Below the pieces are notes generated by a model. That model did no database searches and was not told the DNA's origin. It worked only from the letters and a program-made list of their open reading frames with translations. The translations under genes were made by a program, and so were the position numbers. DNA of 64,000 bases from Escherichia coli (GTDB lineage: Bacteria > Pseudomonadota > Gammaproteobacteria > Enterobacterales > Enterobacteriaceae): NCBI RefSeq assembly GCF_003018255.1, contig NZ_CP027440.1; one strand, given 5' to 3'. Shown in pieces: positions 11,501 to 11,520 of the stretch. Numbering within the stretch: position 1 is the stretch's first letter; the number at the start of each line of letters is the position of its first letter.

Positions 11501-11520
11501 TATTGGCTGTTTATACAGTA
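11501..11520 (+). promoter_or_regulatory. LexA (SOS) box of the dinG promoter
   Basis: tattggctgtttatacagta, ~15 bp upstream of the dinG ATG; matches the LexA consensus TACTGTATATATATACAGTA in the 3' half with a TTG 5' half, as I recall for dinG. Confidence 0.7.

Follow-up and report, generated by a model that had tools for sequence, protein, structure and literature searches.

A characterised asymmetric LexA operator upstream of dinG beside a widespread ybiA deletion in Escherichia coli

In the 64,000-nucleotide stretch of Escherichia coli chromosomal DNA analysed here (the window; contig NZ_CP027440.1 of assembly GCF_003018255.1), the helicase gene dinG is preceded by a 20-mer of which one half matches the LexA consensus and the other does not, and next to it the ybiA gene has been reduced to a remnant. 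This arrangement raises the question of whether the 20-mer is a working SOS box, perhaps of a new type, and whether the neighbouring deletion has modified the control of dinG. Our analysis leads us to assign a probability of about 0.92 to the reading that positions 11501–11520 form the ordinary, already characterised dinG operator and that the promoter-operator unit is unchanged by the ybiA deletion (Table 1). Since the 20-mer is the published dinG operator in unaltered form, the finding itself was already known, and the site is not a new SOS-box variant.

Table 1. Features of the rhlE–dinG region in the window, and alternative contents of the variable slot among complete E. coli genomes
Feature	Position in window	Strand	Description and basis
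rhlE, left flank of the variable slot	9635–10996	+	ORF list, RefSeq annotation
Divergent haplotype block with the remnant	11172–11436		About 88–89% identity to K-12, near-identical among deletion carriers, 97.9% to E. albertii
ybiA remnant, pseudogene	11231–11428 (198 nt)	-	C-terminal 65 codons of the NADAR-family N-glycosidase YbiA; translation and PGAP
Deletion junction	11429/11430		298 bp relative to K-12 MG1655; alignment
Retained ybiA–dinG intergenic DNA	11430–11534		105 of 119 bp; alignments
Putative extended -10, TGcCACAAT	11493–11501	+	Phylogenetic footprint; last T is box position 1
dinG SOS (LexA) operator	11501–11520	+	TATTGGCTGTTTATACAGTA; identical to the published operator, top matrix match, conserved
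Probable ribosome-binding site, cAGG	11524–11527	+	7 nt before the dinG ATG; CAGG largely conserved across species
dinG, ATP-dependent DNA helicase DinG, 716 aa	11535–13685	+	ORF list and RefSeq annotation of an identical genome
Slot content: intact ybiA			3429/5426 genomes
Slot content: deleted ybiA			1117/5426 genomes
Slot content: type III effector gene espX2			542/5426 genomes
Slot content: PaaA2/RelE-ParE toxin-antitoxin pair			325/5426 genomes

The operator sequence and its published identity

The preliminary description of this DNA, made from the letters alone, had proposed a LexA box upstream of dinG with a consensus ACAGTA 3' half and TTG in place of CTG in the other half, about 15 bp from the dinG ATG. 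All of this holds: the right half of TATTGGCTGTTTATACAGTA is the consensus ACAGTA, positions 3–5 read TTG, the end of the 20-mer lies 14 nt before the ATG at 11535, and the assignment to LexA is borne out by this position, by identity to a characterised operator and by conservation across all 97 Enterobacteriaceae species. The box does not obey the strict CTG-N10-CAG rule, its right trimer CAG and the flank of that trimer being consensus and its left trimer being TTG. LexA binding at the dinG operator was reportedly described by Lewis and Mount in 1992 (J Bacteriol 174:5110).

In PMC8265657, the "asymmetric" dinG SOS box attributed to Lewis & Mount 1992 corresponds letter for letter to our 20-mer; there, the identical operator is presented, with citation of the same work, as experimentally characterised with LexA binding in vitro, and the TTG-type dinG sequence is accepted as a functional exception to CTG-N10-CAG. 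The dinG entry among the SOS boxes of PMC3009722 (Table 4) is likewise identical to 11501–11520, and a review (PMC11981726) states that the dinG promoter is repressed by LexA. For K-12 dinG, a heterology index of 8.6, a 3.2-fold induction by AZT and a 1.7-fold lexA dependence have been given (PMC11228462, Table 1). The K-12 gene has the same 20-mer, the same 14 nt to the ATG and the same 98 nt upstream of the ATG, so that operator and promoter do not differ at all from those of the window, the difference being confined to DNA more than 105 nt upstream (a ybiA remnant in place of an intact ybiA). When compared to the canonical gammaproteobacterial boxes of the type TACTG(TA)5CAGTA (for instance those of recA, umuD, sulA and uvrB), the dinG box has the same length of 20 bp and shares the ACAGTA right half, the T/A-rich centre and the overlap with the promoter of a DNA-repair gene, whereas its left trimer is TTG and theirs is CTG.

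A consensus search of the whole window with TACTGTATATAAAAACAGTA, allowing up to 3 mismatches, returned no match. Because the dinG box departs from the consensus at 5 positions, a weight matrix was used in place of the consensus search; it was symmetrised and built from the 17 other E. coli SOS boxes of PMC3009722 (Table 4), with dinG left out. This matrix placed the dinG box first among the 63,981 positions of the window, at 14.45 bits, but as high a score was also reached by 10% of random 64-kb windows matched in dinucleotide composition, so that composition alone makes weak evidence for the box. What is decisive is its position, its identity to the characterised operator and its conservation in all 97 Enterobacteriaceae species. 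The score was distributed very unequally, with 14.1 bits for the right half-site and 0.35 bits for the left one. The 17 reference boxes ranged from about 14 to 29 bits, compared to 14.5 bits for dinG, and only polB (13.9 bits) scored lower; a computed T-to-C change at box position 3 would lift the dinG score to 20.5 bits. Note that the second-best matrix match in the window, TACTGGATGCATTACCGGTA at 13582–13601 (12.9 bits), falls within the 3' end of dinG, at a distance of 112 nt from the ybiB ATG. We considered it as a second operator, upstream of ybiB, and rejected it, as 12.9 bits falls within the range of chance maxima (mean 11.3, sd 2.2).

Conservation of the operator and architecture of the promoter

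Within the species, the 100 bp at 11441–11540 were found at 99% identity or more in 5421 of 5426 complete E. coli genomes, and three sampled single-base variants of this segment were located at 11447 and 11524, outside the box. Across species, dinG genes were collected from a species-representative genome collection with a degenerate pattern spanning codons 1–11 of the gene, which returned 107 species; as the pattern covered dinG codons only, the scan is independent of the upstream sequence. All 97 Enterobacteriaceae species had the same asymmetric box, 13–16 nt ahead of the ATG, and a canonical LexA box preceded dinG in the 10 remaining species, all Erwiniaceae, so the LexA box is conserved at orthologous dinG promoters. 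In the other Enterobacteriaceae, dinG displays the same order of elements (extended -10, box, about 14 nt, ATG) and the same box positions 4–19, and differs mostly by a G at box position 3, where E. coli has T. The commonest form, TAGTGGCTGTTTATACAGTA, was observed in Salmonella, Citrobacter, Klebsiella, Enterobacter, Kosakonia, Kluyvera and others. Among the 96 aligned species, position 3 was G (TAGTGG...) in 93 and C in none, and positions 4–5, 7 and 10–12 were identical in all 96; TATTGG was restricted to E. coli and E. albertii, and TAATGG to E. whittamii. The Erwiniaceae (Pantoea, Erwinia and Mixta) also carry their LexA-type box directly upstream of dinG, but, unlike in E. coli, it is a canonical CTG-N10-CAG site, TACTGTGTAAAAATACAG, at 22–23 nt from the ATG. 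For Salmonella, the dinG SOS box has been placed 14 nt from the start codon, with a heterology index of 10.08 and a 10.6-fold induction by nalidixic acid (PMC8072944).

Two dinG 5' regions with the enterobacterial box were also recovered under distant taxonomic labels, namely a 511-bp scaffold labelled Geodermatophilus sabuli (L098) and a locus labelled Chryseobacterium sp. 18061 (L117). Both resemble the dinG 5' region of Enterobacter or Pluralibacter, and both are probably assembly contamination.

It could be argued that 11501–11520 is half a palindrome by accident, that it does not function as a LexA site and that dinG is induced through another element; the 0.35 bits of the left half-site and the frequency of equally good scores in random windows would fit such a view. 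However, it leaves no place for a 20-mer that is identical to an operator reported as experimentally characterised, invariant across E. coli, kept at a fixed distance from the ATG in 97 species, and the best site of the window exactly at a known SOS gene, and we give it practically no credence.

The footprint of the 96 aligned species revealed a single invariant upstream block, AAArTGnCAnAAT, which starts at 11489 and runs into the box, to 11520; column by column, the information content upstream of AAArTGnCAnAAT was at background level. Within TGnCAnAAT, the bases T, G, C, A, A, A and T were invariant in 96 of 96 species, and only the 'n' of TGn and hexamer position 3 varied. These are the positions of least weight in extended -10 elements. 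Further upstream, many genera carry a terminator-like GCCGGGCTTTTCTTTTT about 20 nt before the extended -10. The box thus begins at the last base of a family-wide putative extended -10, in overlap with the predicted promoter, and stops 14 nt short of the ATG. A strict sigma-70 -35/-10 scan of 11000–11700 returned no promoter, and in the accessible part of the Cappable-seq supplements of PMC4782308 there was no entry for a mapped dinG start in either coordinate system; we therefore infer the position of the dinG promoter from conservation alone, which would put the transcription start at about 11507–11509, in the left part of the box. An Rfam scan of 10900–11700 gave nothing at the box, and only sub-threshold matches to REP-type repeats.

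These elements are compatible with a simple repression model, in which LexA binding and damage induction at 11501–11520 would be carried over from the literature on the identical sequence. A LexA dimer would occupy the 20-bp site, with the right half-site ACAGTA carrying almost all of the sequence information, and the left half-site TATTG, being non-consensus, would make the operator a weak to medium one. As the box abuts or overlaps both the putative extended -10 and the probable start, bound LexA would block RNA polymerase. Upon DNA damage, RecA-stimulated self-cleavage of LexA would then de-repress dinG, and the downstream ybiB too.

As a tentative extension, which we hold to be possible and clearly short of probable, the asymmetry of the dinG operator may be maintained and not a product of decay. 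The left half-site would then coincide with a discriminator and start region that is frozen in Enterobacteriaceae, where position 3 may change between G, T and A but does not become C, the base of a strong operator, and dinG would thereby be kept weakly repressed; the block of about 95 bp would be protected at the edge of the hypervariable rhlE–dinG slot, of which one haplotype is common to E. coli and E. albertii.

The ybiA deletion and the variable rhlE–dinG slot

In K-12, ybiA and dinG are divergent neighbours with a common intergenic region of 119 bp. In the alignment to K-12 MG1655, the 298-bp gap of the window takes away 284 nt of coding sequence at the 5' end of ybiA (about 95 codons, start codon included) together with 14 nt of its leader, so that the 5' 60% of ybiA has been lost. 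From 11437 to the ATG, 98 of 98 bases are identical to K-12. From the junction it is 71 nt to the box and 105 nt to the dinG ATG, in agreement with the preliminary description of a box retained beside a deletion with its endpoint within about 100 bp. What is left of ybiA is its 65 C-terminal codons, and an intact YbiA/NADAR gene of about 160 aa with its own start codon is not present. The segment 11000–11700 is 100% identical to that of E. coli strain JNE23-011, and the RefSeq (PGAP) annotation of the identical genome describes 11231–11428 as 'NADAR family protein', 'incomplete; missing N-terminus'.

The box had also been placed inside a read-through portion of the ybiA remnant ORF. This is correct as far as the letters go, as a minus-strand ORF at 11231–11536 (101 codons) exists and spans the box, but this ORF is mechanical and not a gene. 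Were it a real new fusion gene, joining intergenic read-through to the YbiA C-terminus over the operator, its first 36 codons would be former intergenic DNA and its product would hold only the last 40% of the NADAR domain; moreover, its start codon overlaps that of dinG, which is read from the opposite strand, a ribosome-binding site is not evident, and PGAP annotates 11231–11428 only, mostly as a pseudogene. Apart from the existence of the ORF itself, nothing speaks for such a gene, and we regard it as almost certainly illusory.

The deletion is neither private nor recent, as the same junction was found in 1117 of 5426 E. coli genomes, ST131 EC958 and other lineages included, and in the E. 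albertii type strain NBRC 107761. It is thus an old and widespread haplotype of phylogroup-B2-type E. coli, such as ST131, and of E. albertii. When compared to E. albertii NBRC 107761 (locus L016, 6073–6363), the segment 11150–11440 aligned at 97.9% identity and free of gaps, versus 93.4% for the surrounding 11 kb and 88–89% for K-12 ybiA. This pattern indicates that the deleted-ybiA haplotype is common to both species, either as a trans-specific polymorphism or by introgression, as judged from the alignments. The 11% divergence of the remnant from K-12 cannot be ascribed wholly to decay after the deletion, given the 97.9% identity between this block and E. albertii.

The rhlE–dinG slot (11000–11441) is hypervariable in E. 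coli. The four contents listed in Table 1 together account for 5413 of 5426 genomes, and their right boundary is common to all four haplotypes, at 11434–11441, about 95 bp before the dinG ATG. In addition, strain SF-088 (L005 2420–2570, at about 11474 of the window) has a P2-like prophage with tail fibre genes and a recombinase adjoining dinG; its homology to the window reaches no further than 27 bp upstream of the box, and the DNA upstream of its -10 is therefore of phage origin. Truncated matches of the SF-088 type were found in about 7 of 5421 genomes. E. coli strain 98210 (L012 3100–5251) has the toxin-antitoxin haplotype, and its annotation gives dinG as a frameshifted pseudogene.

Palindromic repeats of the REP/BIME type occur at 11020–11185, between rhlE and the ybiA remnant, where Rfam returned sub-threshold matches to naRNA4 and ES036 (11027–11184). 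In this stretch the window is closer to K-12 than to ST131 EC958, although EC958 also carries the deletion; the K-12-like repeats in a deletion haplotype suggest a mosaic.

Control of dinG beside the deletion

The preliminary description had further suggested that the deletion could have altered the upstream promoter context of dinG, a proposal that finds no support in our results. The sequence comparison argues that the deletion probably leaves the regulation of dinG untouched, because the junction falls about 78 bp upstream of the predicted transcription start; it also lies at least 59 bp from the conserved unit of extended -10 and operator (11489–11520).

A change in basal or induced DinG levels could be imagined if an upstream activator or UP-like contact had been lost (the remnant now lies at about -78), or if divergent transcription or supercoiling had changed. 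The short distance of 71 nt from junction to box, the divergent arrangement of ybiA and dinG around their common intergenic region in K-12, and the fact that about 95 bp upstream of dinG are intact in all four haplotypes, so that more than the core promoter could matter, may be put forward in its favour. Against it, the 98 bp up to the ATG are unchanged, and upstream of the extended -10 cross-genus conservation is absent, many genera having GCCGGGCTTTTCTTTTT there; the DNA in this place is freely replaced between genera and haplotypes, and in E. coli it can be taken by ybiA, by espX2, by a toxin-antitoxin pair or by a prophage. The deletion haplotype is moreover old, frequent and common to E. 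albertii, and DinG is still SOS-dependent in ST131: in the proteome of the clinical ST131 isolate FI 20 exposed to ciprofloxacin, DinG was among the most recA-dependent proteins (PMC11039860), and this isolate may carry the deletion, which was seen in ST131 genomes of our collection. An altered regulation of dinG by the deletion is thus improbable, with a small residual chance, and the unchanged promoter-operator unit remains the preferred reading.

Altogether, the dinG site is a textbook exception to the CTG-N10-CAG rule and is unchanged here, and it therefore brings nothing new for SOS regulation. Its use is in part a negative one, namely that in carriers of the common ybiA deletion, be they B2-type E. 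coli or E. albertii, a regulatory change of dinG should not be assumed. For annotators and for those who model SOS boxes, the asymmetric operator and the extended -10 constitute one invariant unit across Enterobacteriaceae, with GTG in most genera where E. coli has TTG, next to an rhlE–dinG slot with four major alternative contents.
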